Below, piece after piece: positions 15,140 through 35,818 of a stretch of DNA of 64,000 bases (the first letter of the stretch is position 1; every line of letters starts with the position of its first letter). Source of the stretch: an uncultured Oleispira sp. (GTDB lineage: Bacteria; Pseudomonadota; Gammaproteobacteria; Pseudomonadales; Oceanobacteraceae); assembly GCA_913061415.1 (NCBI GenBank), contig CAJXUD010000006.1, positions 63,505-127,504 on the forward strand, read 5' to 3'. A program made the translations under genes and the position numbers. The notes under the pieces were generated by a model. The model saw only the letters and a list, made by a program, of their open reading frames with translations. It did no database searches and was not told where the DNA came from.

Positions 15140-18100
15140 ATGAGCTTTAATATTGGTTTAAGTGGTATTCGCGCGGCTTCCACAGATTTGGAAGTAACGG
15201 GTAACAATGTTGCCAACGCAAGCACCACGGGTTTTAAAGAATCCCGTGCAGAATTTGGTGATGTCTATACCAATACATTGCTCGGTACCGGCAGTAAACC
15301 TGTGGGTAGCGGGGTGATGGTTGAAAACGTTCGCCAACAATTCAGCCAAGGTAATATTAGTGGCACCGAAAATGCGCTAGATATGGCCGTTGATGGTAAT
15401 GGTTTTTTTGTTTTAGAAGATCAAGGTGTTGTTTCATATACACGCGCTGGTTTGTTTGGGTTGGATAAAGATGGCTATATTGTTGCCAATAATAATGCCC
15501 GAGTGCAGGGCTTTGCGGCTAATGGCGAGGGTGTTGTTGGTGGTGTGCTAGGAGATCTTCAAATACAAGTAAGCAACCAAGCTCCAGCATTAACCAGTTT
15601 AGTATCAGCGCAGTTGAATCTAGATGCAGGTGAAGATGTACTGCAAGAGCAAGGCTTAGAGTTAATTGCAAGTGGGCTAGCCATTGGTGTGCCAGATTCT
15701 GGCATTATAGAATCAACGGCTTCTACATTAGTTGCTGCAGGGCAACCAACGACAGCGGGTACTCCTGCCATGGTTGACTGGACTATAGGCACTAATACTG
15801 TGGCGGCAATTGGTACAGCCGGTACCGCAGGTGTTGCAGATATTCAATTTGATATTGGTGATGGTAATGGCCTACAAACAGTTAGCGTACCTGCCATTAC
15901 TGCTGGAACACCGGAAGCGGGTGTATTATCGCAAATTCAAACGGCTATTGATGATGTGTTTGGATCTCAGCAGCTTGCGGCGACAACGTCAGCGACGGGC
16001 GAATTGATTATTCAACGTGCAGGCATTAATGCAACGAATGGCACGAGTTTCTCAACCAATGATATCAGCTTCAATGCGGTATTTGGTGCAAACTCTGGTG
16101 CAGTTCCGGGAACCGCTGGTTCGCAATTATTCGTAGGTTCAACGCCAATTAGTGCGGATTTCCGTTCAATTCCGGGTACTTCAACGACGACTCGAACAAC
16201 GGCTACGCCGCCTCTTGCTCTTGTAGCTTCAAGCCCTGGCGCCCCACATGAATTGACAGCGAACAACCCATACAGTGGTGCTGGTCTAGATTTTAGTGGA
16301 GCCAATGAGTTAGCGTTTAGTATCGCAACGGAAGGTGGTGCAACCTATAACATTACATTGGATGCAGCGACGTTTGGCGGTTCGGCCAACGTCGACGTGA
16401 CCTCAATGGCCAACGCTATTAATGCGCAAATTACTGCGATTGCCGGTGCAGGTAACGAAGAAACCCTTGTGGAAGTTCCTGTTGTATCGGGTCGCCTTAG
16501 ATTTCAAGCTCAAGTCGGGCCAGCAGCCAACGGTGATTTTGTTCAGATAGCCGATAATGCTGGGGCTTCATCGGGTCTTAGTTTAACGGATCTAGGTTTC
16601 TTATCGACCAACCGTTTTGACGGTGGTACAGAGCCTGTTCAAGCCAATAATCAGTTTGCTTTAGAAGTAACGAGTTCGAGCGGTAATGGTGCAGGTCCAT
16701 TTGATATTATTATCCCACCTGCAACTTATGCCAGCCTTGATGATGTCGTGAACGCAATACAGGAACAGATTGATGTACGCATCGGAGCAACCGGATTAAG
16801 CGGTAAGGTAACGGTTGATGCAGTGGGCGGACAATTAGTCTTTACCAATAGTATTACTGGGACGGGTGAGGGTATCGCGATAACGGGCACAGTAGCAGAA
16901 CCTTTAGCCGCTGCAGCGCTTGGATTAGATAGTCTATTTGCTGTTGCTGGTCAGGACGAAATTGATAGATCAAACTCCTTTCGTTTAAACTTAACGGTTC
17001 CTGCTCCTGATGAAGAGAATCGCTCAGGCTCAGTGTTAATTTCATTAGACGAAGAATATCGCTCGGTGCAACAATTGGCGACCAGTATTAATCGTCAATT
17101 GAACAGCCAAAACGCGGATGACTATGTTGGAATTAGAGCGCAGGCCGTTGAAGTATTGCCTAATACCGTACCACCAGAATTTACCTTAGAGCTTGTTGCA
17201 GTAGAAGAAGGTGAAGGCTCTATTATTAGTATTTCTAATATTTCAGCTCCGGGCGAAGAAGTGAATACCAATGACTTATTCGCAATATTGCAATCCAATC
17301 CAGCGAATACTAATTTGTTAACAACCGGTATTGAAGGGGTTAATAACCAATATCCAGAGCAGCAAGTAACGCTTATGGATCCTGAAGGAGCTGAAACAGT
17401 ATTAACGATTCCTGAAGGTACAGAAGCAAACGAAGTAGCCAGTATTTTTAATCAGCAGGCGGGTATTACCTCCATTGCGAATACGGTTATGACTGTGCCG
17501 TTATCCAGCTATAACAACCCGGGTAATACCATGACCCTAACGGTTAATGGACAGGCATTAAGCTCGACCAGTTTGCCGGAAATTGCGGATGAAATTAACG
17601 GCTTCCGTGGCACGACGTTACCAGGGTTTTTAGCGTCTATTACTGAAACTGGCGATCTGATCATTACGAACGAAATCGGTCGTGATGTGAAGTTAGAGAT
17701 CAATAGCACCTCGCCAACTGACAGTGTCATGGTATTAGGAGCTGAAAATACCGGTCCTGTTGTATTGGGTGGAACAGTATCCGCGCCAACAGCCGCGGCA
17801 GTAGGCGGTAGCGTTACGTTCACTTTGAATGAAGGTTATTCTTTGGCGAACCCACAGCCAAGTGTATCGGGATTATTTGGTGCGCTATCGGAAGATGAGT
17901 TCACCCCTGTTATTTTGAATGCGTTTGATCCTACTGATCAAGATACTTACAATCATGAAACGTCGTCCGAGATATTTGACAGCTTGGGGAACAGTCACTT
18001 TATGACGCAGTATTTTGTGAAAGAGCCGCTAGATCCTAGTCGTCCAAATGAACAAAATATCTGGGCTATGTATGTACAGGTTGATGGCCAAAATGTTGGA

Positions 18101-18757
18101 GATCCAGATTCCACATTAGATTTCCCTGAGAACCTTGCCCCTTCGCAAGCTCGTTTTGAATTGTTCTTTAATCAAGATGGAACTTTAGATACTCAAGCCA
18201 CTGGAGACATGTATATTTCTAACTGGGATCCAGTGGACGAAAATGGCGATCCTACTGGGGCGGTTAATTCTGTAAACGTTTTAGAAGGGGGGTTGCCGTT
18301 AACAAGCCCTGCAACAAACTCGAACTTTCAAATTGTATTGGACGGCACTACTCAGTTTGGTAGTTCATTCTCGGTCAGTGATGTGAATCAAAACGGTTAT
18401 ACAACAGGGCGTTTAGCGGGCCTACAAGTTGATCAAGAAGGGATGATCTTTGCGCGTTATACTAACGGCCAAGCACAAGCATTAGGCCAAGTTGCGTTAG
18501 CGAATTTCCGTAACCCTGAAGGATTAACACCATTAGGTGGCACCGGTTGGGCGGAATCATTTGAGTCGGGCGTGGGAACGGTTGGCTCGCCAAGAACCGC
18601 ATCGTTCGGTCAGGTGCGAGCGTCGGCATTAGAAGACTCTAACGTCGATATCTCAGAAGAGCTGGTGGGCTTAATCATCGCTCAGCGTAACTTCCAAGCC
18701 AGTGCTAAGACGATTGAAACCATGGACCAAGTGACGCAGACCATTTTGAATATATAA
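15140..18757 (+). CDS. flgE: Flagellar hook protein FlgE, giant form (1205 aa)
   Basis: Canonical N-terminus MSFNIGLSGIRAAS..NNVANASTTGFK and C-terminus LEDSNVDISEELVGLIIAQRNFQASAKTIETMDQV. An insertion of about 750 aa lies between ...AQLNLDAGEDV and FDPTDQDTYNHETS (about nt 15650-17905). Confidence 0.95.
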   Translation: MSFNIGLSGIRAASTDLEVTGNNVANASTTGFKESRAEFGDVYTNTLLGTGSKPVGSGVMVENVRQQFSQGNISGTENALDMAVDGNGFFVLEDQGVVSYTRAGLFGLDKDGYIVANNNARVQGFAANGEGVVGGVLGDLQIQVSNQAPALTSLVSAQLNLDAGEDVLQEQGLELIASGLAIGVPDSGIIESTASTLVAAGQPTTAGTPAMVDWTIGTNTVAAIGTAGTAGVADIQFDIGDGNGLQTVSVPAITAGTPEAGVLSQIQTAIDDVFGSQQLAATTSATGELIIQRAGINATNGTSFSTNDISFNAVFGANSGAVPGTAGSQLFVGSTPISADFRSIPGTSTTTRTTATPPLALVASSPGAPHELTANNPYSGAGLDFSGANELAFSIATEGGATYNITLDAATFGGSANVDVTSMANAINAQITAIAGAGNEETLVEVPVVSGRLRFQAQVGPAANGDFVQIADNAGASSGLSLTDLGFLSTNRFDGGTEPVQANNQFALEVTSSSGNGAGPFDIIIPPATYASLDDVVNAIQEQIDVRIGATGLSGKVTVDAVGGQLVFTNSITGTGEGIAITGTVAEPLAAAALGLDSLFAVAGQDEIDRSNSFRLNLTVPAPDEENRSGSVLISLDEEYRSVQQLATSINRQLNSQNADDYVGIRAQAVEVLPNTVPPEFTLELVAVEEGEGSIISISNISAPGEEVNTNDLFAILQSNPANTNLLTTGIEGVNNQYPEQQVTLMDPEGAETVLTIPEGTEANEVASIFNQQAGITSIANTVMTVPLSSYNNPGNTMTLTVNGQALSSTSLPEIADEINGFRGTTLPGFLASITETGDLIITNEIGRDVKLEINSTSPTDSVMVLGAENTGPVVLGGTVSAPTAAAVGGSVTFTLNEGYSLANPQPSVSGLFGALSEDEFTPVILNAFDPTDQDTYNHETSSEIFDSLGNSHFMTQYFVKEPLDPSRPNEQNIWAMYVQVDGQNVGDPDSTLDFPENLAPSQARFELFFNQDGTLDTQATGDMYISNWDPVDENGDPTGAVNSVNVLEGGLPLTSPATNSNFQIVLDGTTQFGSSFSVSDVNQNGYTTGRLAGLQVDQEGMIFARYTNGQAQALGQVALANFRNPEGLTPLGGTGWAESFESGVGTVGSPRTASFGQVRASALEDSNVDISEELVGLIIAQRNFQASAKTIETMDQVTQTILNI

Positions 18758-18923
18758 GTCATTCATTAGCCTGCTTCCTATTTTTTGTAGCGGCAATCTT
18801 TCTCGTCTTATCTTCAATAAGGCGGGGCGAGGTTGCCGTTTTTTATTGCCGTTTTGCATCCTTTCTTGCTCTATTTCCCAAAAACTTCCCTTGAAGCCCC
18901 GAATAACCAGACTATTTCAGTTT

Positions 18924-18939
18924 TGGCATCTACTTTGCA
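18924..18939 (+). promoter_or_regulatory. Sigma54 promoter of flgFGHI
   Basis: TGGCAT-N5-TTGCA, 53 nt before flgF. Confidence 0.85.
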
Positions 18940-18991
18940 ATACCTCTAGTTAATAGCAATACACACAGATTTAAGTTTCAGGAGTTAGGTT

Positions 18992-22512: not shown

Positions 22513-22815
22513 ATGGCAAAGAGCAATTCGTTACTTGACGAGATAGAAACCATGACGGCAGAGATACATTCGTTGTTGAGACAAGGGGTGAAAGAGTTAA
22601 GTGATCAAAGGATAGAACAGCGCCAACGAAAAATAGAATTGTTATTTATTCACCCCGAGAGAATTACAGCTCAAGATCAGGCTCGCTTAAAAGCGATGGT
22701 AGAGCAAGATGACGGGGTAAAAAAACAGCTAAAAAAAGAACAACAGGCTTATCATAACCGCAACCTGAAGCGGTCGAAGTTGAAAATGTATGGACAGAAT
22801 AGTTCTGGTGTTTAG
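22513..22815 (+). CDS. Small helical protein of unknown function between flgI and flgJ (possibly a FliT-like export chaperone)
   Basis: 100 aa, no signal peptide, predicted all-helical with a basic tail. The segment SDQRIEQRQRKIELLF and the tail ...QQAYHNRNL recall FliT-family proteins by eye only. No fliT follows fliS in this locus. Confidence 0.35.
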   Translation: MAKSNSLLDEIETMTAEIHSLLRQGVKELSDQRIEQRQRKIELLFIHPERITAQDQARLKAMVEQDDGVKKQLKKEQQAYHNRNLKRSKLKMYGQNSSGV

Positions 22816-23008: not shown

Positions 23009-24064
23009 ATGATTAACAGCCAGATTGCACAGCCACAAGATGTTTATACAGACCTTAATAGTCTGCAAAGCATTAATGCTATTGGTCGCGAAGACAAAGG
23101 CGAAGCTTTGCGTAAAGTGGCTGAGCAGTTTGAATCTATGTTTGTCAAAATGATGATGAAGTCGATGCGTGATGCGAATAAGGTTTTTCAAGAAGATTCG
23201 ATTATGCATTCTCCGCAAGAAGATTTTTATCAACAAATGTATGACGACCAATTATCGGTCAGTTTAACCGGTAAGCAGGGTATGGGATTGGCAGATGTTA
23301 TTTATCGTCAGCTTAATCAAGAATATGGCGATCCTGAGGGACGTAAAGAGGTTCAGTGGCAGCCATTGGATGATCGTCGCAAAAACTTTTCTCATGCGAT
23401 CGACTTTAACCAAATTGAAAAGAAAAATACTCAGCTTAAACCTAAAAAAGAACAAGCGGGTTTTGAAATCGATGCGTCGTTTGTGAATAAAACTGAGCAA
23501 GATACATCCCCTGAAAAGCAAGCTGATAAACTGCAAACGTTTGCCAGCCCCGAGGCGTTTATAGAAACACTTTATCCGGCGGCGCAAAAAGTGGCTAAAG
23601 AAATGGGTGTTAGCCCTCAAGCGATTGTTTCTCAAGCCGCATTAGAAACTGGCTGGGGAAAGTTTGTGATCCATGGTGAAAATAGCCAAGGCGAGCAAGA
23701 AAACAGTTTTAATTTTTTTGGCATTAAGGCTGATAGTCGCTGGAGTGGTGAAAAAGTGAGTGTCACTACTCATGAATATCGAGATGGTCAGCGCGTAACA
23801 GAAAAAGCAGATTTCCGCTCATACCCTAGCATCGAAGCGGGCCTAAAAGATTATGCTGATTTCTTGCAGGCACAGCGTTATGAAAAGGCGATGGCGGCAG
23901 GAACAGATATCGAACAATACGCAAAAGAATTGCAGCAAGCTGGATACGCGACAGACCCTAAATACGCACAAAAAATAACGCGCATCGCCAACAGCGAACT
24001 GATGCAGCAAACTTTAAATACTACGCCATTAGCGCAAAATAGCGAAGAGGTGCCTCGTGGGTGA
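23009..24064 (+). CDS. flgJ: FlgJ: rod-binding domain plus peptidoglycan glucosaminidase
   Basis: N-terminal AEQFESMFVKMMMKSMR and a C-terminal muramidase/glucosaminidase region (AALETGWGK, FFGIKA, AGYATDPKYAQKI). Confidence 0.92.
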   Translation: MINSQIAQPQDVYTDLNSLQSINAIGREDKGEALRKVAEQFESMFVKMMMKSMRDANKVFQEDSIMHSPQEDFYQQMYDDQLSVSLTGKQGMGLADVIYRQLNQEYGDPEGRKEVQWQPLDDRRKNFSHAIDFNQIEKKNTQLKPKKEQAGFEIDASFVNKTEQDTSPEKQADKLQTFASPEAFIETLYPAAQKVAKEMGVSPQAIVSQAALETGWGKFVIHGENSQGEQENSFNFFGIKADSRWSGEKVSVTTHEYRDGQRVTEKADFRSYPSIEAGLKDYADFLQAQRYEKAMAAGTDIEQYAKELQQAGYATDPKYAQKITRIANSELMQQTLNTTPLAQNSEEVPRG

Positions 24065-27035
24065 TTTATTAGGCATAGGTATTTCTGGCTTAAAAGCTCA
24101 GCAAACAGCGCTGAGTGTTACGGGTCATAACATTACTAACGCGGGTACTGAAGGTTATAGCCGCCAGACGGTAAACTTTAATGAAAATACGCCTCAGTTT
24201 AGCGGCGGTGTTTGGACCGGTAATGGCGTTAACGTTGATTCTATTAAGCGCGTTTATGACGAATTCTTAACCGAGCAAATGCAGCGCGACTCATCGGCAT
24301 TTAATGAGAATGAAGTTTTGTCGGTTAACGCTTCACAAATTGACAGTTTATTGGCCGATTCAGGAACTGGCATACAGCCAGGCATCGAAAGAATGTTTGG
24401 CGCTTTGCAATCGGTGGTAGATGATCCTTCGTCACTTCCGGCCCGACAAGTTTTGATCAGTGAAGCCAACGGGCTTAGCGATCGATTTTCTACTATCAGT
24501 GATCGACTGAATGACCAAAGCGAAATTATTAATGGGCAAATGGATGTTATTGCTGGAGAAATTAGCACCATTGGTAATGCGATAGCTGACCTTAACGAAC
24601 AGATTCAATTTGCTTTAGCCGCATCTAATGGCCAACCACCGAATGATATGCTGGATCAGCGTGATCGACTAATAACCCAGCTTTCTGAATTGGTCTCAGT
24701 TGAGGTAACGATCCAAGATGGCAGTGCAATGAATGTCATGATCGGTAATGGGCAATCTTTAGTAATTGGAAATGAATCAAGTGAGCTATTTACCCAGGCT
24801 GGAGATTCTGATTCTTCCAGATTCGGTCTGTATTTCCGTAAAGGTGATACCGTCGTAGACGTCACAGCTGAAATTAAAGGTGGACAGCTGGGTGGAATGC
24901 TACAGTTTCGTGAGGTGGTATTAGAGCCAGCGATTAATGGTTTAGGTCGTCTCGCAGTAAGTATTAACGAAGCATTTAATCAACAACATCAGCTGGGTAT
25001 TGATTACGAAGGCTCAAAAGGCGGTAACTTTTTTGACGACGTAAACTCGCCGAGTAATAGCTATGCGAGGGTACATGGTGATGGCCGCAACAAAGCACCC
25101 AATGATCGCTTAGTTTCAGCGCATATCACCGATAGTTCGAAGTTAACCACCGATAATTATCGATTAGAATTCCCTGGTCCTGGGGAGTATGTGTTTAAAG
25201 TCTATAACGATACCACCGGCCAAGAATTAGAAGCAACTGCGCTAACCGGAGAGCTTCCGCAAACGGTTGAAGTTGATGGCTTTGAAATACGCTTAGAAGC
25301 GGGTACTTTTCAAGCAGGAGATCGTTTTTTAATTACACCAACGCGTGCCGCAGCAGGCAATCTTGATGTGCGCGTGACTCGACCAGAAGAAGTCGCCATT
25401 GCCTCACCGATTTCTACTGACTCGGCCATTGGTAACCGCGGAACAGGGGCTATTTCACAAGGTGCTGTTTACGATATTACAACACCTTATTTGGCCAGCG
25501 AAGGCGAGATGGACCCTCCTTTATTGGTGAAGTTTACGTCAGCCACAAGTTATGACGTATTGGATAACTCAGACCCTGGTAATCCGATACCACTCTTTCC
25601 ACCCTTGATGAATCAACGTTATATTCCGGGTATATCGAATAATATTTTACCACCCGACGAAGGTAAAACCGCCTTCACCAGTTTTGGTGGATATCTACCA
25701 ACAATGCCCACGTATCAGGCACCATCACCAGCGCCTACAGTAACGGCTGTAAATGGTTTTTTCCCTGAACGTATTACCATTAATCGTGAAGATCCTATTA
25801 CAGGGGCGCAAATAGCTCAGCCGCTATTAATCACGCCAGAAAATGCATCGGCGAAAGAAATAGCGCGGCTAATTTCAGAGAGAGATGGGGTGGAAGCAAG
25901 TGCACGAACAACGGTTCAGTTAAGCGACTTCACCCTAGATGCTAATCCATTTATGGATACAAACTTATCTCTAAATGGCATCACGCTCACCGATACCTTG
26001 GCTTTGACGCAAACAAAATATGCCGATGATTATCCTGCAGTTGTGCCCGAGCCTTTAGATGCCAACTTTATAGCCGATCGAATTAATGCCAATTTTGATT
26101 TTCGGGATATGGGAATTGTTGCCAAGAGTGATGGCGAAACTGTAACGATTATTGCGCTAAATGGCGAAGACTTAAGCTTTGAATTAACCGGAGATTTAGG
26201 AGATGGTTTTTCAATATCTAACTCTCAAGACATTCCACTGATTCAAACGGGACAGTCGCCTGTTGTTAACCTAACAGAAATAGATGGTTATGACTTTTCA
26301 ATAGACGGTCCTTATACTTATGAGTTTGAAGGCCCAGATAAAAAAATGTACAGCATAGAGCTGACGGGGAATCATAGTTCAGGGGCCGCTGTCTTAAATG
26401 AAATTCAAAATAAAATTGATAATTCAGGCCTTGTTCACCCAGGTAACTTACAAGTAGATATTGATGAAAAGGGCAGGATTAGTTTTCAAACAAAACTGCC
26501 CGTAACTGCAACAGGGATTAATGGCAGTAGCAAAATTGCCATGGGCGGTGAAATTAAAGTTGTACTTGATGAAGGTCACAGCTTAGAAATAGACCCACCT
26601 GGAAATAATTTATTTGATAGCAACCCCGTAGGTGAGTCTGTTCACTTTGGCTTTGATGTTGAAATAGAAGGGCTGATTCAAAATGGTGACGAATTTACTG
26701 TACAGTTTAATAAAGACGGTACCTCTGATAGCCGCAACGGTGTTGCACTGGGTAACTTGCAAACAAAAAAAATTGTTAATGGAAATACCAGCTTTAGCGG
26801 TGCTTATGCGACGCTGGTAGAAGAAGTGGGTTCTATAACCAGTAGAGCGCGCATAAATAAAGAATCAAGTGAAGTATTGCTGCGTAACTCTAAAGATGCG
26901 GTGAATAGCAGCTCTGGGGTTAACCTAGATGAAGAAGCCGCCGCCTTAATTCAGTATGAACTTGCTTACAATGCTTCTGCCAAAGTGATTCAAGTTGCGC
27001 GTGATATTTTTGATACTTTAATAAATACATTTTAA
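24057..27035 (+). CDS. flgK: Hook-filament junction protein FlgK (HAP1), enlarged (992 aa)
   Basis: GTG start overlaps the flgJ end. N-terminus LLGIGISGLKAQQTALSVTGHNITNAGTEGYSRQ and C-terminus GVNLDEEAAALIQYELAYNASAKVIQVARDIFDTLI. Confidence 0.93.
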   Translation: MGDLLGIGISGLKAQQTALSVTGHNITNAGTEGYSRQTVNFNENTPQFSGGVWTGNGVNVDSIKRVYDEFLTEQMQRDSSAFNENEVLSVNASQIDSLLADSGTGIQPGIERMFGALQSVVDDPSSLPARQVLISEANGLSDRFSTISDRLNDQSEIINGQMDVIAGEISTIGNAIADLNEQIQFALAASNGQPPNDMLDQRDRLITQLSELVSVEVTIQDGSAMNVMIGNGQSLVIGNESSELFTQAGDSDSSRFGLYFRKGDTVVDVTAEIKGGQLGGMLQFREVVLEPAINGLGRLAVSINEAFNQQHQLGIDYEGSKGGNFFDDVNSPSNSYARVHGDGRNKAPNDRLVSAHITDSSKLTTDNYRLEFPGPGEYVFKVYNDTTGQELEATALTGELPQTVEVDGFEIRLEAGTFQAGDRFLITPTRAAAGNLDVRVTRPEEVAIASPISTDSAIGNRGTGAISQGAVYDITTPYLASEGEMDPPLLVKFTSATSYDVLDNSDPGNPIPLFPPLMNQRYIPGISNNILPPDEGKTAFTSFGGYLPTMPTYQAPSPAPTVTAVNGFFPERITINREDPITGAQIAQPLLITPENASAKEIARLISERDGVEASARTTVQLSDFTLDANPFMDTNLSLNGITLTDTLALTQTKYADDYPAVVPEPLDANFIADRINANFDFRDMGIVAKSDGETVTIIALNGEDLSFELTGDLGDGFSISNSQDIPLIQTGQSPVVNLTEIDGYDFSIDGPYTYEFEGPDKKMYSIELTGNHSSGAAVLNEIQNKIDNSGLVHPGNLQVDIDEKGRISFQTKLPVTATGINGSSKIAMGGEIKVVLDEGHSLEIDPPGNNLFDSNPVGESVHFGFDVEIEGLIQNGDEFTVQFNKDGTSDSRNGVALGNLQTKKIVNGNTSFSGAYATLVEEVGSITSRARINKESSEVLLRNSKDAVNSSSGVNLDEEAAALIQYELAYNASAKVIQVARDIFDTLINTF

Positions 27036-27094: not shown

Positions 27095-28333
27095 ATGCGT
27101 ATCTCTACCTTGCAGTCGTTTAATAAAGGGCTGAATTCGATTATGGATAATCAATCTCAGGTCAGTAAAACCCAGCAACAAGTTTCTACCGGTCGACGAG
27201 TATTAACCCCGGCAGATGACCCCATTGCGGCGACAAAAATATTACAGCTGCAGCAAGACTCGGCTTTAAGAGAGCAGTTTGGAAAAAACATGACGGGGGC
27301 CAAGGGCCGATTAGCGTTAGAAGAAACCCAAATGGCAGGGATTACCGAAAATTTGGATCGTCTAAAAGAGCTGACTATTCAGGCGGGAGGTGGAGGCGTC
27401 AACATCAGTGACCGTCAAGCTATAGCCTTCGAAGTTAATGTTATTCTAGAAGCCACCGTAGATTTGATGAATTCAAAAGATGCGGGTGGTGAATATTTAT
27501 TTGGCGGCTTTAAAGGCAATACACAGCCCTTTCAAAAAAATGAAAATGGCCGCTATGATTACGCAGGAGACGAAGGCCAGCGATTTATCTCCATTGCGTC
27601 CTCAACAACCGTTGCCACTGGGGATAATGGGAAAAAGTTATTTGTTGATGTAAAAGCTTCTGATAATACCTTTAATACACAAGTAAACCCGACTAACGGT
27701 GGCACCGGCGTAATTAATCCTGGTTTTGTCGTCGACCAAGAAGAGTATGATAAATTATACCCAGAAGACCTTATTATCACATTTAACCCAGAAACCGCCA
27801 TCTCGCCGCCGGGGCCTAACTATACCGTTCGTCAAGCGTCTGATGGGCGAGTTGTAGAGGGTGTTGATAATCGAGCGTTTAAACCAAGTGATAAAGTCAT
27901 AATCGCAGGGCTTGAACTTAAAATCAGTGGCAAGGTACAGCCAGGTGATGAATTTTTGGTTAATTCGTCAGAAAAACAAAGTTTAACCGATACACTTTAT
28001 CGTTTAAAAGATGGTTTGAATTCCTTAGAAGATATTCCAGTAGATAGTGAAGCATTAAAAAATCTACTAGCGAATACATTAGAGAATTTAGATAATGCAC
28101 AGGCAAGCATTTCACAAATACGCAGTGAAGTTGGTGCGCGGCTCAATGTAGTAGAAAATACTGAAGCACAAGCCGCAGATATCGACCTAGTCAGTAAGGA
28201 AGTTCTATCAAAAATCAGTGATGTAGACTTCGCAGAAGCTGTCAGTCGTTTAAGTTTACAAACATTTTTGCTAGAAACAGCACAGCAAAGCTATGCAAAA
28301 ATACAAAACCTTTCTCTGTTTAACCGCCTGTGA
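27095..28333 (+). CDS. flgL: Hook-filament junction protein FlgL (HAP3)
   Basis: Flagellin-like termini (MRISTLQSFN...; ...DFAEAVSRLSLQTFLLETAQQSYAKIQNLSLFN); 412 aa. Confidence 0.9.
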   Translation: MRISTLQSFNKGLNSIMDNQSQVSKTQQQVSTGRRVLTPADDPIAATKILQLQQDSALREQFGKNMTGAKGRLALEETQMAGITENLDRLKELTIQAGGGGVNISDRQAIAFEVNVILEATVDLMNSKDAGGEYLFGGFKGNTQPFQKNENGRYDYAGDEGQRFISIASSTTVATGDNGKKLFVDVKASDNTFNTQVNPTNGGTGVINPGFVVDQEEYDKLYPEDLIITFNPETAISPPGPNYTVRQASDGRVVEGVDNRAFKPSDKVIIAGLELKISGKVQPGDEFLVNSSEKQSLTDTLYRLKDGLNSLEDIPVDSEALKNLLANTLENLDNAQASISQIRSEVGARLNVVENTEAQAADIDLVSKEVLSKISDVDFAEAVSRLSLQTFLLETAQQSYAKIQNLSLFNRL

Positions 28334-28749: not shown

Positions 28750-31212
28750 ATGCCACAAATTATAAATACCAACATTGCCTCGTTGAACGCACAGCGTAAC
28801 TTGGACAAATCACAGTCTTCAAACCAGCAAGCGTTACAACGCTTATCATCAGGTCTTCGCATTAACAGTGCAAAAGACGATGCAGCAGGTATGGCGATTT
28901 CTACACGCTTCACCTCTCAGATTAAAGGTCTGAACGTAGCAGTACGTAACGCAGGTGATGGTATCGCACTAGCACAAACCGCAGAAGGCGCATTGGGCTC
29001 AATGAATGAAAGCTTACAGCGTATTCGTGAGCTAGCCGTACAGTCTTCTAACGCAACCAACTCAGATGTTGACCGCGATGCACTTCAAGCAGAAGTAAGT
29101 CAGTTGGTTTCTGAGATCACGAGAACGTCTGAAGAAACTGATTTTAATGGTCGTAAGTTACTTGATGGTTCTTTCACGGCAAGCTTCCAAGTTGGTGCAA
29201 ATGCTGGCCAAACTATTGATGTTTCGATTGCTGAACTAACATCTGAGAAGTTGGGTTCTGATTCTCAGGCGGGTGTTTCTTCGCAGGGTAATAGTTCTAA
29301 GCTTGGAAATGGTGATCTTGTCATTAATGGTGAGAATATTCGAGCTTCTGTTTCTGGTGATGATCAATTATCGTTTTCTGGAAAAGAATACTCGGCTATT
29401 GCAAAGGTTGCGGCAATTAATGATTCTAGTGAGAAGACTGGCGTGACTGCAACAGTTGATGAAAACGTTGTTCTTGGTGCTGATATGTCAGATCAAGCTG
29501 CGATTACTCCAGATACAGCAACGATCACCTTGAATGGTGTTGATATAGCCTTGCAGAGCACCGCTAACTCCTCTGATGCCGATAAAGCAGCGACCCGTGG
29601 CTCCGTAATCCAAGCAATCAATGCTAAAGCCGAACAAACTGGCGTAATGGCTTCTGATGGTGGTAATGATGGTGGTGTTATTTTAACTGCTGCAGATGGT
29701 CGAAATGTTACATTAACATCTGACTCTGGTACGGATGATGTCAATGATTTAACAATTTTTGGATTGTCGGATTCAAATACAGCAGGTACTGCTGCCGTGC
29801 AGTCTCAAGCAGGCTTTACGCTAACTGCTGAAAATGCGAATACCAGTATTAACATCACTGGTGGTGATGATACAGGCAATGGTAATCTAGCGAATTCAGG
29901 CTTAGCGGCCGGTAATTATTCAGCTCAGACTGCTTTTACAAGCTCTACTAAGCAAGAAGTTGGTGGCGCAGATGCCGCAGCAACTACCATTAATTCTACA
30001 GCAGCTACGGCAGCCTTAGCAGTAACTCAAGCAGCGGCTTCTGGCGTAACAATTGCGCTTCCGGGTGCAGACACACTGGTTGCTATTCAAGCTGAATTTG
30101 ATGCAGCTGGATATGATGTAACGGTAGGAGCACTAACACAAGAGGGTGTGGCAGTTGCTTCTGGTGAAGCAAAAGCTTCTGAAAAACGCTTGGCGGATGG
30201 TGATTTAGTTATTAATGATGTTGTGATCAAAGCATCAAGTACTTTGGATGATACGGCATCCGATACCAGTGCGGCATCATCAGATGCAGCTGCTTCAGGT
30301 ATTTCCATTGCAGCCGCAATTAATAAGGCTTCTGATTCAACGGGTGTTACCGCTGAAGTTAATGCAACAGAGGTTGTAGGCGGCGCTAATGCTCGATCTG
30401 GGGCTGTAGGGCTGACGTTTGGTGCAACGGCTGGTGCGGTTGCTGCTGGGGATAGCATTACATTAACGGTGAATGGCGTAGATATTAGCCTTACAGAAAC
30501 TGCAGATTATGAGAAGAATAAGGCTGCCGCTATCACTGCGTTTAATGAAGTTTCTGGTCAAACGGGTATTGTTGCTACAGACAACGGACAATCACTTACC
30601 TTAACCGCTGCAGATGGTCGAAATATATCATTGTTTGCTGATGGTGGTGCTGGTGAGGCTATGACTGACTTAGGCACAAGTATAGAAAACTTTGGTCTTA
30701 ATGCATCAAACGTTGGCCAGAATACTGGGGCGACAGGTGTGAAAGCATATACTAACGCAAGTGGTGCTGAAACAACCTATTCAACGGTTTCCTTAACTTC
30801 TGCTTCAGCATTTGAAGTAAGCTTTGGTACTGGTGGGGCCGAGGGCCTATCAGATTCAGGCTTGGTTGCAGGTAAATTTGGTGGTGGTGAAGATGGTCAA
30901 GCCTTGGTTGATGTGGACATCTCAACAGTAGCTGGTGCTCAAGAAGCCTTGGTTGCCATTGATAATGCCATTGGCCAGGTAGCGAGCCAGCGAGCTGACT
31001 TAGGTGCGATCCAAAACCGTATGGAATCAACAGTTAGTAACTTGCAGATTTCGTCTGAAAATTTGAACGCGGCTAACTCGCGAATTCAAGATGCCGATTT
31101 CGCAGCAGAGACAGCAGAACTGCAACGTACTAACGTGTTACAGCAGGCAGGTATTTCAGTTCTAGCGCAAGCTAACGCATCAGGCCAGCAGGTTCTATCT
31201 CTTCTAGGATAA
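28750..31212 (+). CDS. fliC: Flagellin, large form (820 aa) with an internally duplicated variable region
   Basis: N-terminus [18 protein letters not shown]...[16 protein letters not shown] and C-terminus [33 protein letters not shown]. The central region contains two paralogous modules of about 150 aa. Confidence 0.95.
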
Positions 31213-31858: not shown

Positions 31859-34800
31859 ATGGCTGCTATTGAATCATTAGGGTTAGGCTCAGGGGTTTTA
31901 ACCAATGACTTGGTCGATAAGATTGTCGGGGCCGAGCGTGAAGCGGCGGATAAGCGCTTTGAACGTGAAGAAACGATTATCGATGCTCGCATTACTGCCT
32001 ATGGTGAAATTAAATCTCTATCGTCTACCCTACAAGTTGCTACCAGCGCACTTTCTTTACCGTCCACGTCGGGTTCAACCACAGCGTCGTCTTCTGATGA
32101 AGCTATTTTAACAACTGAAGCGTCTATTTTAGCCGAGCCAGGCACTTACAGTGTAGAGGTGTTAAATACCGCAAAAGCACACAGTGTGGTTACCGATGCG
32201 TACAGCAGTATTGATGAAATAATTGGTACGGGTGAAATTCAAATTACCTTTGGTGAAATTACTTATGATGGTACGGGTGGCTTTTTAAGTCAGGATGTTG
32301 ATCCTGCTAAAGGCGGCTCACCCATTGTGATTGACGATTCGAATAAAACATTGAGTGGTATTCGAGAAGCAATCAATAATGCGGACATTGGGGCAAAAGC
32401 ATCGATCATTAATGATGGTTCTGGTTATCGCTTAGTAATCACCTCTGAAGAAACCGGTGAAAATAATGCCATGCGCATTATGACCAAGGATGACTTGGGC
32501 GGCACAGCAACATCGGGATTGTCTTCTATTGCTTATAACGAAGTTCAAACCGGTGCTGGCACTATGTCAGAAACGGCAAAAGGTGAAGATGCATTATTGA
32601 AAGCCAATGGTCTCACCATCACTCGTGAATCAAATAGTATTCAAGAAGTTGTTCCTGGGGTGACATTAAATTTATTATCAGCCGACGTCGGTAAACCTAT
32701 TTCAATTGTAGTTGCTCCCGATACGGCAGGTATTCAAGAAAAAATTCAGGATTTTGTTAATGCTTATAATGAATTCAAAAAATTCTCTGATGACTTAACC
32801 TCGTACAATTCAGAAAGTGATCAGGCAGGTTTGTTATTAGGTGATTCGACAATTCGAGGGATTCAATCGCAAGTACGCTCTATGATCAGTCAACCAATCG
32901 CCGGTTTATCAGGTACTAAATACCGCTCATTAACCGAGCTGGGCGTGAATACAGATAAAAATAATGATTACCTTTTAGAGTTTGATCCGGCTGTTTTTGC
33001 AAAGGCGATACGAGAAGAACGTGATACCGTCGTTAGCATTATGTCTAAAAGTGGTGAAGCTACCGATTCACAAATTCGTTATGTGAATGACTCAATTAAT
33101 ACGCAGCCAGGCACGTATGGTATAGAAGTTACTCAACTTGCCACTCAGGCTACTTATTCGGGAGGCAGTGTTACGGGTTTAGATTTTTCTAGCCCTGTTA
33201 TGATTGATGGTAGTAACAATAATTTTAGTATTAATATCAATGGTACAACTGCTGCGATTGAATTAATTCAAGGGAGTTATGCTACGGGTGAAGAATTAGC
33301 CAAGCAAATCAGTTTTCAAATAAACAGTAATGATGCATTTAAAAGTCTTTCTTATGCGGTATCGACTAGCTATAGCGCTACCGATAAAAACTTTTCAATA
33401 ACGTCAAATAAATACGGCGCCGAATCACAAGTTTCTTTTACCAGTACCGATTCAAATACTGCCAATACTTTAGGGTTTAATACCACGGGTAAAGGTGCAT
33501 TTGATGCCGTTGCTTTAACAACACTGAACAGTGATGCATTTTTAGGAAAAGGTTCTACTACTCAGCCGGGTTCACGCACGGTTTTAGAAAGTAATGGTAT
33601 TAATTTTGCCACGAACAATGCGTCATTTTCTTTGGATATTGGTGGTGGTCCTGTTGCCGTTACGGTGAACTTGAATGCGGCGGGTAATGATCTAAACGGT
33701 GATAGTGATATTGGTAACCGTAAAGATACTCTACAGGCGATTCAAACCGCTATTGATGCAACTGCTTTGAACGGCGCTGTCATTGCCGACTTTGATGATA
33801 ATGGGTATTTAACCTTTACGACATCGGCTTTGGGTAGCAGTGAACAGATTGAAATTACCAGTGTCGGTAGCACAAGCAGTGATACGGCATTGGGTTTAAA
33901 AGCGGATCAGGGCGTACAAACCAATGGTGATGATCCTGGTTTAACGTTTGCATCGGCCACTGAGTTTAATATGGCTGTCGATGGTATTAGCACAACGACA
34001 AAGGTCAGCGTGCCATCGGGTACTTATTTAAGCGGTGCTGACTTAGCCACAGCGATTGAGTTGGCGATGGATACTGCTTTGGCGGCAGATCCTGCGTTTG
34101 TCGGATTAACCAAAGGTGGCGTGAGTAATATTGGAACACGCGATATTAGTGCTCCTATCGATTTCTCTACCAGTAATTCTGGATTTATGCTGAATGTGTC
34201 GGGTGTCGAAAAAGAAATTATTGTTAATGGTAATGACCCCGATAATATTGTGAATATTCAAGCGGCGTTAGATACCGCCTATGGCGCTGGAATTGTTTCC
34301 GCAAGTTTGGATGGTTCGGGTGTTAAGTTGTCGTCGGTAACGACGGGTCATAATGAATACATTGAAATTACGGCTGATGGGCGGGGTGCTATTAGTGATA
34401 CCAGTTCTGCCGTGACCAATATCACAACCGGTATTGATTTTAGTGGTGTGGGTGATAATGCAACTTTTACTTTAGCGGTTGATGGCGTTGATATTAACGT
34501 TGATGTGAACGGCGATGGTACTGCAGGTACGAATGATGCTGCATCCACGTTGAATATTGTGCAAAGTGCTGTTGATACGGCCTTGGTAGGCAGTGGGCAG
34601 TTCTCTGAAGGCGATGTGGTTGCCAAACTAGATGGTAGCGGTAATTTATATTTTGAAACGCTGGCTAAAAATGGCGTTAAAACGGCTGCAACTTATGGCT
34701 CGGGTGCGAGCATTGAAGTTAAAAATATCGATGCAAATGCTTCGGCTGACTTAGGCTTAGCTGCCAGTACCGTTTCTAATGGTTACGATACTTTTGGTTT

Positions 34801-35818
34801 CGATGAAACCCGACGTTACGGTTATGATTTAGAGGCTGATGTTGAATACAAGTACGATCCAGTCACCGATTTGGGTTCGTTTAAAATCAATGTTGGTGGC
34901 AATGCTACCGAAGTCTCTTTTAGTGATATTGATGCCGCCGCCATCTCGCTAATCGGGCTGCAGGATGTCAGTATTTATACGCCAACCGTCGCACAAGGAA
35001 AGAACATTGAAGGCAAAATTAATGGCGTTGAGGCTAAAGGCAATGGCCAATATTTGTCAGCAACAGATGGTAATAAAAAAGCCAGTAATGGGTATTACAT
35101 TGCAAATTCCGCGGCTGATTTTACCGCTGGAGTTAATTTAGACGCAACCAATAATAGCTTTACAATTGAAGTTGATGGTGTCGAAAGAACGATTAGTCTG
35201 GCTCAGCCAAGTTCTTATAACTCGGGTGCTGGCTTAGCCGCCGCGTTACAGAAAGCGATTAATGACGATGTCACATTTAAAGCAGATGGTATTGAAGTTA
35301 AGGTCGAATATGACGATGACCCTGCGTCTTTTTCTTATCAAAAATTCGGCATTATTTCAGGCTCTACGGGGGCGTCCTCATCGGTTAAAATGGTGGACGT
35401 ACCTGGGCCAACTTCTGCAATCTTTGGTTTTATCAACGGACAAGCGGATGGCCAGACGGGTAAAGCCCAAGAAGGTCAGATTGATCCATCAAGTGGTGTG
35501 CGCTTAAAAATTACTGGAGGCGCGTTAGGGGATCGTGGCTCTGTTACTTATATTTCGGGCTTTGCTGATCAATTAAATGCTAGTTTGTTATCGCTGCTCG
35601 ATAATAAGACGGGTTTAATTACCACAAAACAAAATGCGTTAGATAATGATAAAGTGCAATTAGAAGAGGAGAGAGAGCGACTTGATACGCGAATGTCTGC
35701 ACAAGAAGCGCGTCTTAAGAGTCAGTTTTTATATAATGATGCGATCGTATCAAAGTTAAATTCAACGTCTGATTTTATAACCCAGCAGTTTGAGGCAATG
35801 AATAACTCTAAGAAGTAA
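31859..35818 (+). CDS. fliD: Filament cap protein FliD (HAP2), giant form (1319 aa)
   Basis: N-terminus MAAIESLGLGSGVLTNDLVDKIV...ITAYGEIKS and C-terminus ...LDTRMSAQEARLKSQFLYNDAIVSKLNSTSDFITQQF. The central part carries at least 7 repeat modules. Confidence 0.93.
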   Translation: MAAIESLGLGSGVLTNDLVDKIVGAEREAADKRFEREETIIDARITAYGEIKSLSSTLQVATSALSLPSTSGSTTASSSDEAILTTEASILAEPGTYSVEVLNTAKAHSVVTDAYSSIDEIIGTGEIQITFGEITYDGTGGFLSQDVDPAKGGSPIVIDDSNKTLSGIREAINNADIGAKASIINDGSGYRLVITSEETGENNAMRIMTKDDLGGTATSGLSSIAYNEVQTGAGTMSETAKGEDALLKANGLTITRESNSIQEVVPGVTLNLLSADVGKPISIVVAPDTAGIQEKIQDFVNAYNEFKKFSDDLTSYNSESDQAGLLLGDSTIRGIQSQVRSMISQPIAGLSGTKYRSLTELGVNTDKNNDYLLEFDPAVFAKAIREERDTVVSIMSKSGEATDSQIRYVNDSINTQPGTYGIEVTQLATQATYSGGSVTGLDFSSPVMIDGSNNNFSININGTTAAIELIQGSYATGEELAKQISFQINSNDAFKSLSYAVSTSYSATDKNFSITSNKYGAESQVSFTSTDSNTANTLGFNTTGKGAFDAVALTTLNSDAFLGKGSTTQPGSRTVLESNGINFATNNASFSLDIGGGPVAVTVNLNAAGNDLNGDSDIGNRKDTLQAIQTAIDATALNGAVIADFDDNGYLTFTTSALGSSEQIEITSVGSTSSDTALGLKADQGVQTNGDDPGLTFASATEFNMAVDGISTTTKVSVPSGTYLSGADLATAIELAMDTALAADPAFVGLTKGGVSNIGTRDISAPIDFSTSNSGFMLNVSGVEKEIIVNGNDPDNIVNIQAALDTAYGAGIVSASLDGSGVKLSSVTTGHNEYIEITADGRGAISDTSSAVTNITTGIDFSGVGDNATFTLAVDGVDINVDVNGDGTAGTNDAASTLNIVQSAVDTALVGSGQFSEGDVVAKLDGSGNLYFETLAKNGVKTAATYGSGASIEVKNIDANASADLGLAASTVSNGYDTFGFDETRRYGYDLEADVEYKYDPVTDLGSFKINVGGNATEVSFSDIDAAAISLIGLQDVSIYTPTVAQGKNIEGKINGVEAKGNGQYLSATDGNKKASNGYYIANSAADFTAGVNLDATNNSFTIEVDGVERTISLAQPSSYNSGAGLAAALQKAINDDVTFKADGIEVKVEYDDDPASFSYQKFGIISGSTGASSSVKMVDVPGPTSAIFGFINGQADGQTGKAQEGQIDPSSGVRLKITGGALGDRGSVTYISGFADQLNASLLSLLDNKTGLITTKQNALDNDKVQLEEERERLDTRMSAQEARLKSQFLYNDAIVSKLNSTSDFITQQFEAMNNSKK

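Follow-up and report, generated by a model that had tools for sequence, protein, structure and literature searches.

The hook protein FlgE, the hook-associated protein FlgK and the cap protein FliD of an Oleispira-like gammaproteobacterium are two to three times their normal size because strings of small decoration domains have been inserted into them. We give a probability of roughly 0.6 to the reading that these strings form a fixed outer layer round the hook, the junction and the cap. The flagellin FliC has been enlarged differently, by way of its DE unit. The window (the whole stretch of 64,000 nucleotides that was analysed) carries a flagellar late-gene region, and its relevant features are collected in Table 1.

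The inserts and their distribution among the axial proteins

Re-derivation of the open reading frames reproduced the coordinates and lengths of FlgE, FlgK, FliC and FliD given in a preliminary description of this DNA, all of the peptides quoted there were found in the translations, and Pfam and NCBIfam searches identified all four proteins and put their extra mass in the middle, flanked by the canonical N- and C-terminal domains. The long reading frames are not assembly artefacts: proteins of equal size are encoded in complete genomes of Oleispira, Thalassolituus, Bacterioplanes and Venatoribacter, as well as in drafts and MAGs from Bacterioplanoides, Parathalassolituus and other genera. The axial proteins FlgC (148 aa), FlgF (250 aa) and FlgG (261 aa) and the hook cap FlgD (265 aa) are of ordinary size. 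FlgL had been counted among the buried or periplasmic proteins, which is incorrect: it is an exposed junction protein, not enlarged here by these modules, and the class-B HMM search of the window proteins found no class-B module in it.

The FlgE insert of about 770 aa lies between the N-terminal part of D0/Dc/D1 (residues 1 to about 150) and D2 (920-1087), which is followed by the C-terminal part of D1/D0 (1088-1205). The FliD insert (residues 441-1199, approximately) splits the FliD_C Pfam domain near profile position 168. In the AF2 models both inserts are beads of beta-beta-alpha-beta-beta(-beta) domains, with pLDDT 80-93 in the FlgE insert and a mean of 84.5 for the FliD model as a whole; the pTM of the FlgE model is 0.31, so that the arrangement of its domains relative to one another is unreliable and a regular layer is indistinguishable in it from a floppy brush. 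The top Foldseek match of the whole FlgE model is D2/D3 of Pseudomonas aeruginosa FliC (8erm; TM 0.63 over 181 columns, the aligned part of the model not being reported). The inserts are free of cysteine and acidic (pI about 4.05), which is compatible with export.

Table 1. Flagellar genes of the window and the domains within their products; positions are those of the window, and residues (aa) those of each protein.
Feature	aa	Position	Strand	Evidence
flgE, hook protein	1205 in length	15140..18757	+	NF004238 equivalog 465 bits (cutoff 400); AF2 model
FlgE M1, class B	205-330	15752..16129	+	hhalign 96% to broad class-B profile; HMM 8e-5; AF2 bb-a-bbb, pLDDT 85-93
FlgE M2, class B, weakest member	375-490	16262..16609	+	hhalign 94% to B2; HMM 3.6e-4, borderline; AF2 bb-a-bbb
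FlgE M3, class B	498-595	16631..16924	+	FliD-seeded profile 7.9e-10; hhalign FliD M3 96%, FliD M2 92.5%
FlgE M4, class B	608-692	16961..17215	+	HMM 45.5 bits; hhalign 97% to family profile
FlgE cassette	735-908	17342..17863	+	hhalign to FlgK; phmmer match
flgK, hook-associated protein 1, GTG start	992 in length	24057..27035	+	TIGR02492 314 bits (cutoff 170.75)
FlgK a (class C) and b (class A, Flagellin_IN-like)	560-632, 632-715	25734..26201	+	hhalign
FlgK c, class B	755-835	26319..26561	+	HMM 75.9 bits; hhalign FliD M2 92.8%, FliD M3 93.9%, FlgE M3 88.7%
flgL, hook-associated protein 3	412 in length	27095..28333	+	Pfam/NCBIfam
fliC, flagellin	820 in length	28750..31212	+	Pfam/NCBIfam
FliC DE1 unit	183-395	29296..29934	+	PF07196 34.4 bits (cutoff 22.7); phmmer 1e-12
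FliC centre, site of relatives' DX insert; short here	396-479	29935..30186	+	alignment of 8 FliCs; no class-B HMM match
FliC DE2 unit, tandem duplicate of DE1	480-715	30187..30894	+	PF07196 19.6 bits; phmmer; hhalign
fliD, filament cap	1319 in length	31859..35818	+	Pfam; AF2 model; Foldseek matches FliD cores
FliD canonical D3, Flagellin_IN-like	118-215	32210..32503	+	PF07196 20.7 bits; hhalign 88% to class-B profile
FliD M1, class B	445-540	33191..33478	+	M1~M6 hhalign 99.2%; HMM 70 bits
FliD M2, class B	583-682	33605..33904	+	M2~M5 hhalign 98.4%; HMM 51.9 bits
FliD M3, class B half module (bb-a only)	693-752	33935..34114	+	M3~M6 hhalign 97.3%; AF2 secondary structure
FliD M4, class B	768-848	34160..34402	+	M2~M4 hhalign 96.9%; HMM 44.8 bits
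FliD M5, class B	863-972	34445..34774	+	HMM 55.3 bits
FliD domain X, beta-rich	983-1096	34805..35146	+	AF2
FliD M6, class B	1095-1192	35141..35434	+	HMM 76.2 bits

Module classes and their relationships

The recurrence of a unit of roughly 100 aa, as first described, is real, but its core is shorter, at about 80 aa (80 profile positions; 60-125 aa with linkers). The principal module, class B, has the order beta-beta-alpha-beta-beta-beta, has no Pfam model, and is present in four copies in FlgE, one in FlgK and 5.5 in FliD. Class A is of the Flagellin_IN type, with four copies in FliC and one each in FlgE and FlgK, and the native D3 domain of FliD also belongs to it; class C is represented by a single module in FlgE and another in FlgK. 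Domain X of FliD gave no significant hhalign match and is assigned to none of the three classes.

Recurrence is far above chance both within FliD and among FliD, FlgE and FlgK. Shuffled or reversed decoys served as controls, and none was ever included in the iterative HMM searches; a profile seeded with one FliD module pulled in modules of FlgE and FlgK and zero decoys, and the hhalign scores of real pairs were 30-100, as against 24.9-27.4 for the best reversed decoy. The proposal that hook, HAP1 and cap share homologous inserts is borne out by hhalign, which links FlgE M1 with FliD M2 at 93.5% in addition to the pairs of FlgE M3 and FlgK c with FliD modules in Table 1. FlgE and FlgK have a further C+A cassette of about 170 aa in common, which in FlgE comprises the class-C M5 (736-792), the Flagellin_IN-like class-A M6 (795-872) and a beta tail, and which matches FlgK 565-752 at 98.5% (hhalign, P 3.7e-15, 159 columns). 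The FlgK modules a and b are the counterparts of M5 (98%) and M6 (88%), and b also matches module 2b of FliC (85%).

The proposal does not extend to the flagellin of the window, on which the class-B profile found no match. Its units with ITLNGVDI and LTVNGVDI had been taken for the module of FlgE and FliD, but they are copies of the Flagellin_IN motif and lie within a duplicated DE unit of about 210-235 aa. DE1 contains two Flagellin_IN-type modules (183-250 and 252-330) and a beta part, and it matches DE2 at 99.9% over 200 columns (hhalign); by these comparisons the protein, which is "large" rather than "giant" (defined as >1000 aa), is enlarged by the known DE1/DE2 tandem duplication and not by class B. 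Class B is found in flagellins only among the relatives, within the DX insert: against a profile built from FliD, FlgE and FlgK alone, the DX modules of T. marinus and of the relative L002 score 25.6 and 19.5 bits, and the best decoy 9.1. As judged from these sequence matches, class B builds part of the DX insert in the giant flagellins of relatives, an insert earlier considered to have arisen de novo.

Searches of the inserts with PF07196 gave a divided result, in that FliC DE1 exceeds the cutoff, FliD D3 and FlgE M6 (a weak 13.9 bits) come near it, and the class-B copies of the window never reach the gathering score; in the class-B family as a whole, 7 of 41 members have weak matches (best E 1e-3). 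The modules share the beta-beta-alpha-beta-beta-beta topology and the I-N/I-Q helix signature with Flagellin_IN, with FliD D3 and with D2/D3 of Pseudomonas-type flagellins (8erm), but class B is a family of its own, and its homology to them is remote (hhalign 60-93% through intermediates). Direct comparison of the A2 and B2 profiles gives 60% (P 8e-5); the intermediates are FlgE M6, at 93% to B and 84% to A, and FliD D3, at 88% to B. The link between classes A and B is weak and runs by way of these intermediates, and the three classes would form a single remote superfamily, to which the Flagellin_IN motif and FliD D3 also belong. In the PDB, the class-B profile finds its best match in the D3 domain of Bdellovibrio FliD (6kty, E 0.03), and the modules may plausibly descend from FliD D3.

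Conservation and the alternatives to a structural layer

The co-expansion of hook, HAP1 and cap is conserved throughout the clade. Across its members FlgE measures 1185-1261 aa, FlgK 992-993 aa and FliD 1306-1326 aa, with FliC varying between 820 and 1344 aa, and the FliD modules are 58-69% identical to those of the window, compared with 62-68% for the core. A degree of conservation similar to that of the cores, with indels nearly absent, indicates that the insert modules are under structural constraint and are not hypervariable antigenic loops. Beyond the clade, class B was found in 852 protein clusters at E<=1e-3, and about 90% of the best 150 of these are FliD, FliC, FlgK, FlgL or FlgE.

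If a duplication-prone module had simply spread, without specific function, through exported proteins able to accommodate insertions on their outside, a variable copy number would be in keeping with this, and it ranges from 1 to 15 over the 852 clusters; the outer domains of axial proteins are, moreover, known insertion hot spots, and a natural FlgE variant (P0404, 951 aa) lacks about two modules, M1 and M2, which are the most exposed and least conserved, so that at least part of the FlgE insert is dispensable. Such neutral accretion is nevertheless very unlikely, given lengths that are nearly invariant (FliD about ±10 aa, FlgK ±1 aa) across genera with a FliD identity of only about 55%, the core-like conservation described above, and the cost of an export load raised by some 800 residues for every subunit.

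The modules might instead be functional surface domains, either for adhesion or binding (for instance to prey, particles or droplets of oil) or as O-glycosylation scaffolds along the exposed flagellum. Hydrocarbon degradation or surface attachment is common in the clade, and Venatoribacter is described as a predator; the inserts are rich in Ser and Thr (19-21%), the glycosylation genes Maf, NeuB and PIG-L adjoin fliC in relatives, and class B is also present in a small number of large proteins unrelated to flagella, among them an FG-GAP protein (1852 aa) and two others with lengths of 2684 and 6694 aa. We consider this improbable, although the least so of the three alternatives: the searches found no enzyme or known binding-domain signature and no glycosylation island within the window, strong conservation and a copy number that stays constant in FliD and in FlgK are unusual for adhesins, and hook and cap make up so small a share of the flagellar surface that little binding area would be gained.

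A proteinaceous "sheath" that protects the conserved inner part of hook, junction and cap against proteases, flagellotropic phages or the receptors of grazers is marginally less probable again. It would fit the enlargement of permanently exposed proteins only, neither the rod nor the transient FlgD cap being enlarged, and the strong depletion of Lys and Arg in the inserts (2-5%) would confer resistance to trypsin-like proteases. The same fold also decorates tail sheath and baseplate proteins of phages in which these are enlarged, viral proteins being matched by Foldseek at E 1e-11. An arms race, however, predicts rapid change, yet the modules of FliD and FlgK and M3-M6 of FlgE are conserved like cores, FlgL is left uncoated, and what varies is the flagellin.

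A proposed outer layer and its relation to known systems

The preferred reading is that the inserts probably serve to give hook, junction and cap a fixed outer layer of protein. Independently folding decoration domains would have been inserted into the outermost canonical domain of FlgE, FlgK and FliD; after type III export and polymerisation they would lie outside the conserved D0-D2 core and build an extra, geometrically fixed layer round hook, junction and cap, beside a thick filament, and this layer probably stiffens or protects a single fast polar flagellum. The enlargement is apparently not needed for assembly itself: FlgD is ordinary although it assembles the giant FlgE, and FliD length does not track FliC length, which together argue that enlargement follows permanent exposure. 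Since FlgL is exposed and has no module enlargement, any coat would be discontinuous.

Outer domains beyond the Salmonella set are known on hook, junction and cap in Campylobacter and Helicobacter (FlgE D3/D4, 5jxl; FliD D4, 9gsx and 6iwy), and the window FliD model aligns with C. jejuni and H. pylori FliD over about 500 columns (Foldseek). In favour of the proposed layer, D4, the additional domain in C. jejuni FliD, sits at the periphery of the cap cavity (PMC12221982). The Campylobacter and Helicobacter proteins have one or two extra domains per subunit, whereas here there are six or seven, one recognisable repeat family is common to different axial proteins, and the clade is gammaproteobacterial, its single polar flagellum having no sheath. 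The decoration domains of phage tail sheaths and baseplates (DUF3383; 8fvg) are likewise a similar small fold repeated outside a helical tubular assembly, but they belong to a different system, and the weak sequence signal (best DUF3383 E 5.5e-5, below the Pfam cutoff) does not establish common ancestry.

The closest precedent is the work of Thomson et al. (2018, PLoS One; PMC6248924), in which the giant flagellins of Oceanospirillales were described as a DE tandem duplication with a DX insert, DE having no matches outside flagellins and DX no homologues, and DX was regarded as probably de novo; the filaments of O. marinus and B. marisrubri are at least 30 nm wide (PMC6248924), which also favours the proposed layer. 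The present organism belongs to that clade (the current name of Oleibacter marinus is Thalassolituus marinus), and its FliC has DE1 and DE2, the FliCs of its relatives having DX inserts; the differences are that FlgE, FlgK and FliD are enlarged here and that the window FliC is essentially without DX. FlgE and FlgK also have, in their common cassette, a Flagellin_IN-like module with remote similarity to DE. We found no paper describing a co-expansion of hook and cap, in agreement with the preliminary description. That study, which dealt with flagellin only, asked openly whether other flagellar components are enlarged (PMC6248924), and the enlarged FlgE, FlgK and FliD answer this question in the affirmative.

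Axial proteins of the late-gene block and their sizes across the clade

The standard flagellar late-gene block (flgBCDEFGHIJKL, fliC, flaG and fliD) lies on the + strand at 13.4-35.8 kb of the window, with flgN, flgA and a PilZ regulator on its 5' side and a TPR-methyltransferase gene, fliS, fleQ, fliE-fliI and che genes on its 3' side. The coordinates and lengths which the preliminary description assigned to four products of this block are exact (FlgE, 1205 aa; FlgK, 992 aa from a GTG start; FliC, 820 aa; FliD, 1319 aa), all of the peptides which it quoted are found in the translations, and canonical domains do sit at both ends of all four proteins when these are compared with Pfam and NCBIfam models (see the table). 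FlgE is identified as the hook protein by PF00460, PF22692, PF07559 and PF06429, each of which exceeds its cutoff, and by the equivalog NF004238 (465.1 bits, cutoff 400), FlgK as HAP1 by PF22638 (247.9 bits) and TIGR02492 (314.5 bits, cutoff 170.75), and FliC as a flagellin by PF00669 (156.6 bits) and PF00700 (90.7 bits). FliD is identified as the filament cap by PF02465 (68.7 bits) and PF07195 (140.9 bits), with the FliD_C domain split by the insert, and by a core fold which agrees in Foldseek comparisons with known FliD structures; its score against the NCBIfam equivalog NF005955 is 232.8, under the cutoff of 387.

Domains and modules of the four large axial proteins, in residues of each protein; module boundaries were set from AlphaFold2 (AF2) secondary structure. 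Class A, Flagellin_IN-type module; class B, module of about 80 aa described in the text; class C, module found once each in FlgE and FlgK.
Protein	Feature	Residues	Class or remark	Source
FlgE	Flg_bb_rod	4-33		Pfam/NCBIfam
FlgE	D1	83-148		Pfam/NCBIfam
FlgE	M1	205-330	class B	
FlgE	M2	375-490	class B, borderline in HMM	
FlgE	M3	498-595	class B	
FlgE	M4	608-692	class B	
FlgE	M5	736-792	class C	
FlgE	M6	795-872	class A	
FlgE	FlgE_D2	920-1087		Pfam/NCBIfam
FlgE	C-terminal domain	1162-1205		Pfam/NCBIfam
FlgK	D1	93-326		Pfam/NCBIfam
FlgK	D2-like	352-428		Pfam/NCBIfam
FlgK	a	560-632	class C	
FlgK	b	632-715	class A	
FlgK	c	755-835	class B	
FlgK	C-terminal domain	951-990		Pfam/NCBIfam
FliC	Flagellin_N	5-143		Pfam/NCBIfam
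FliC	Flagellin_C	736-819		Pfam/NCBIfam
FliD	FliD_N	11-108		Pfam/NCBIfam
FliD	FliD_C		interrupted at 405, resumes near 1200	Pfam/NCBIfam
FliD	M1	445-540		AF2
FliD	M2	583-682		AF2
FliD	M3	693-752	half module	AF2
FliD	M4	768-848		AF2
FliD	M5	863-972		AF2
FliD	X	983-1096	beta-rich, unlike the modules	
FliD	M6	1095-1192	HMM seed	AF2

Searches with the insert regions return hundreds of orthologues of near-constant size (FliD 1306-1326 aa, FlgE mostly 1185-1261 aa) from Oleispira antarctica RB-8, Thalassolituus spp., Bacterioplanes, Bacterioplanoides, Venatoribacter and Parathalassolituus. The search with the FlgK insert gave mostly fragments, and full-length FlgK sizes were taken from genome loci; at every locus examined FlgK is 992-993 aa and FlgL 412 aa. 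In a near-identical MAG (L002), FlgE, FlgK and FliD have the window's own sizes of 1205, 992 and 1319 aa and identities to the window of 98.8%, 95.8% and 93.3%. FliC measures 820 aa in the window and 877-1344 aa in its relatives, the intermediate lengths at the genome loci being 957, 988, 1131, 1140, 1211 and 1255 aa. Because the sizes of the hook, junction and cap proteins are fixed while those of FliC are scattered, flagellin is the variable part of the structure. The explanation that the long reading frames are an assembly artefact is rejected, since several of the genomes are complete and carry genes of identical sizes. In the locus of a close relative (L010 39-2894, protein P0404) FlgE departs from the clade sizes: it has 951 aa, is 76% identical across the aligned part, and lacks M1 and about one more module, beside a FlgK, a FlgL and a FliC of the sizes usual in the clade (992, 412 and 1131 aa); this FlgE is a natural module-deletion variant.

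Between fliD and fliS, on the - strand at 36013-38103, is encoded a 696-aa protein with TPR and SAM-dependent methyltransferase parts, which may modify flagellar proteins; homologues of 672-710 aa occur on the opposite strand shortly 5' of fliS in O. antarctica, Thalassolituus, Bacterioplanes and Venatoribacter. For an ORF of 100 aa in the flgI-flgJ gap (22513-22815) a Pfam search gave nothing; an unannotated 97-aa gene occupies the corresponding place in both O. antarctica RB-8 and L010. A HepT/MNT-type toxin-antitoxin pair (a HepT-like protein and a nucleotidyltransferase) stands between flgL and fliC in Venatoribacter (L007 4823-5624) and Thalassolituus marinus (L009 4413-5217), and is absent from the window.

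Module classes in the inserts

The four inserts (window 15590-17896, 25347-26906, 29245-30951 and 33179-35455) all lack Cys and have a pI of about 4.05-4.25; Lys and Arg are scarce in them (2-5%, the lowest value, 2%, being that of FlgE). AF2 models of FliD (residues 110-1309, 56 sequences, mean pLDDT 84.5, pTM 0.60) and FlgE (residues 6-1205, 43 sequences, pLDDT 80-93 in the insert domains and a core of low confidence as a monomer) present the inserts as chains of small contiguous domains, each made of two strands, a helix and two or three strands; as read from the DSSP strings of the whole models, every module shows the element order bb-a-bb(b).

Plain BLASTP among the four inserts gives a single convincing cross match, between FlgE and FlgK, and an HMM built from FliD alone with two orthologues lacks the depth to detect FlgE (E 0.05). 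The module shared between proteins was detected by hhalign comparison, all against all, of orthologue alignments cut at the module boundaries; reversed templates served as decoys and scored 24.9 at most. Within FliD the pairs M1-M6, M2-M5 and M3-M6 score 99.2%, 98.4% and 97.3%; between FlgE and FliD, M3-M3 scores 96%, FlgE M1-FliD M2 93.5% and FlgE M3-FliD M2 92.5%; and FlgK c is matched by FliD M3 (93.9%), FliD M2 (92.8%) and FlgE M3 (88.7%). An iterative HMM grown from a single seed, FliD M6, on orthologues mixed with shuffled and reversed decoys recruited the other FliD modules, then two modules of T. marinus FliC, then FlgE M3, FlgE M4 and FlgK c, and no decoy of either kind passed the threshold. 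The FliD-seeded profile picks up FlgE 502-583 (7.9e-10) and FlgK 765-829 (8.4e-6), and a broad profile of 1216 instances extends to FlgE M1 (8e-5) and, at a borderline value, to FlgE M2 (3.6e-4), for which hhalign against the broad profile gives 96% and 94%. The resulting class B has 80 profile positions with the consensus xNxxFxxxVxG..I.L..G.Y.sG..La..Iq..In...v.V...G.l.F...G..S.I.i..V (alignment A3). A recent repeat expansion at the DNA level is rejected as the origin of the copies, the members of module pairs sharing just 15-40% protein identity.

The preliminary description had placed one and the same module in all four proteins. By hhalign and HMM this holds strictly for FlgE, FlgK and FliD, and for the window FliC at the level of the superfamily only; the peptides quoted from FlgE and FliD and the second one from FlgK belong to class B, and those from FliC and the first one from FlgK (LSLNGITL..ADRINANF, in FlgK b) to class A. 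The class-B profile has no match in the window FliC, the extra mass of which is a tandem duplication, DE1 (183-395) and DE2 (480-715), whose units align by hhalign at 99.9% (P 3.7e-36, 200 columns) and by phmmer at 1e-12; this is the DE duplication already described for giant flagellins (Thomson et al. 2018, PMC6248924). Each DE unit contains two class-A modules, and PF07196 matches DE1 in two stretches at 34.4 bits, over the gathering threshold of 22.7, and DE2 at 19.6 bits, just under it. No DX insert, the element named by those authors between the DE units, was found in the window protein, where a spacer of about 84 aa without a class-B match separates them, and at 820 aa this FliC is not a giant flagellin (>1000 aa) by their definition and falls in the 'large' class (>800 aa).

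Comparison of the fliC loci of the window (28750-31212), L002 (14704-18126) and L004 (6665-9298) shows the flagellin of L002 to be strongly divergent (1140 against 820 aa, with DE1 only 49% identical), and the outer region of the window FliC to be nearer to that of O. antarctica RB-8 (DE1 68%) than to that of L002. This pattern in the sequences suggests flagellin allele replacement or recombination inside an otherwise conserved flagellar locus.

The relation between the two classes is distant. No module of the FlgE, FlgK or FliD inserts in the window reaches the PF07196 threshold; of these modules only FlgE M6 is matched at all (13.9 bits), and D3, the canonical FliD domain, scores 20.7 bits. 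PF07196 misses every class-B copy of the window and matches 7 of 41 members of the class-B family weakly (best E 1e-3). Among solved structures the class-B profile is best matched by Bdellovibrio FliD, in its D3 domain (6kty, E 0.03), and hhalign, the one method to support a remote homology to Flagellin_IN, places FliD D3 at 88% with class B, and FlgE M6 at 93% with class B and 84% with class A. Compared directly, classes A and B give 60% (P 8e-5, against P >= 0.15 for decoys), and an iterated class-A profile stays confined to FliC, without recruiting FlgE M6, FlgK b or FliD D3. The two classes are probably separate families of one remote superfamily with a common topology.

FlgE and FlgK also share a longer cassette, FlgE 735-908 being homologous to FlgK 565-752 by hhalign (98.5%, P 3.7e-15, 159 columns) and directly by phmmer, in which a class-C module (FlgE M5, FlgK a) comes first, a class-A module (FlgE M6, FlgK b) next and a beta tail last. 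The FlgK cassette aligns with DE2 at 74% (P 2.8e-5), and the FliC module 2b with FlgK b at 85%, a remote similarity of the cassette to the flagellin DE unit; Thomson et al. (PMC6248924) found no DE matches outside flagellins. In the PDB the FlgE model is matched best by P. aeruginosa flagellin in its D2/D3 fragment, 8erm (181 columns, rmsd 3.7 Å, TM 0.63 on the target, scored on the whole model and not assigned to any part of FlgE), and next by Helicobacter flagellins.

Distribution of class B outside the clade

A search of 1.84 billion representative proteins with the class-B profile yields 852 clusters at E <= 1e-3, of which 207 reach E <= 1e-10. Among the best 150 of the 852, classified by core-domain phmmer and Pfam, are about 76 FliD (640-1860 aa), 51 flagellins (many of them 1600-1800 aa long and carrying 8-10 copies, a single one of 2382 aa carrying 15), 6 FlgK (up to 1341 aa), 4 FlgL (510-853 aa), 2 FlgE and a few non-flagellar giants (an FG-GAP protein, 1852 aa, and two others, 2684 and 6694 aa). 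Unlike these module-bearing FlgL, the FlgL of the window (27095-28333, 412 aa) is free of class B. Class B is a widespread family, nearly specific to exposed flagellar proteins, for which Pfam has no model.

A profile built from modules of FliD, FlgE and FlgK, with flagellins left out (A3), matches T. marinus FliC (L009 5665-9432) in its DX insert at 25.6, 15.0 and 13.8 bits and L002 FliC in its own at 19.5 bits, the best decoy reaching 9.1 bits; DX therefore consists at least partly of class-B modules. T. marinus is the former Oleibacter marinus of the study in which DX was judged to be free of homologues and probably of de novo origin (Thomson et al. 2018, PMC6248924), and that view is corrected by these matches.

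The viral proteins closest to the FliD model (window 32186-35785) in Foldseek, with E values as low as 1e-11, are enlarged sheath proteins of phage tails and 'baseplate J-like' proteins, and its PDB matches include the sheath of phage E217, among whole-model results that were mostly FliD cores; several class-B modules have sub-threshold matches to DUF3383. One small fold seems to decorate the exteriors of both phage tails and flagella.

Constraint on the modules and a possible outer layer

The modules are conserved to about the same degree as the cores of the proteins which carry them. The FliD modules share 58-69% identity with those of the window and the FliD core 62-68% (in orthologues down to about 55% overall identity); for FlgE M3 and M4 the figure is 69-77% and for D2 it is 73%, and indels in all of these are practically nil; the exceptions are FlgE M1 and M2, with 50-52% identity and indels. 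Because the modules are inserted at the outer end of the subunit (in FlgE at the passage from D1 to D2, in FliD inside FliD_C), they are expected to lie outside the conserved core after assembly. In Campylobacter the additional FliD domain, D4, is peripheral and outside the flagellin-folding cavity (PMC12221982). That the modules are fixed in copy number and conserved like the core speaks for defined contacts, from which we infer that an extra outer layer would cover the hook, the junction and the cap. The filaments of relatives are at least 30 nm wide, and these organisms swim very fast (PMC6248924).

An alternative purpose of the enlargement, the assembly of large subunits, is opposed by two observations: the hook cap FlgD (14318-15115) is of ordinary size, 265 aa, though it assembles a FlgE of 1205 aa, and the length of FliD is constant while that of FliC varies by more than 500 aa. 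Enlargement therefore appears not to be required for assembling big subunits, and would instead track permanent exposure, to which FlgL, exposed yet free of modules, is an exception. The contrast between the permanent filament cap FliD, which is big, and the transient hook cap FlgD, which is not, provides a natural test of what an enlarged cap is for. Among functions of the modules, protection or a surface property competes with mechanical stiffening.

A more far-reaching reading of these results, to which we give a probability of roughly one in three, is that class B may be an unrecognised portable 'armour' family, remotely akin to Flagellin_IN and FliD D3 and specific to permanently exposed axial proteins, which would have moved among FliD, FliC, FlgK, FlgL and FlgE in hundreds of lineages, and which in the Oleispira/Thalassolituus clade would wrap hook, junction and cap in an ordered extra shell that in relatives would take in the filament as well. 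Elaboration of the outer domains of axial proteins is already known from epsilonproteobacteria, and the genes of the window are already annotated in public genomes; in the literature searched, no paper reported hook, junction or cap proteins of increased size from this clade, or a repeat family common to different axial proteins.

The question left open by the giant-flagellin study (PMC6248924) is answered in the affirmative: hook, junction and cap proteins are enlarged too, and their sizes are steadier than that of flagellin. Cultured organisms (O. antarctica RB-8, T. marinus and V. cucullus) are at hand for asking how a universal-joint hook works with about 770 extra residues per subunit. 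If the 'armour' reading is true, these bacteria would possess a thick flagellum made entirely of protein, with hook mechanics unlike those of the Salmonella paradigm.
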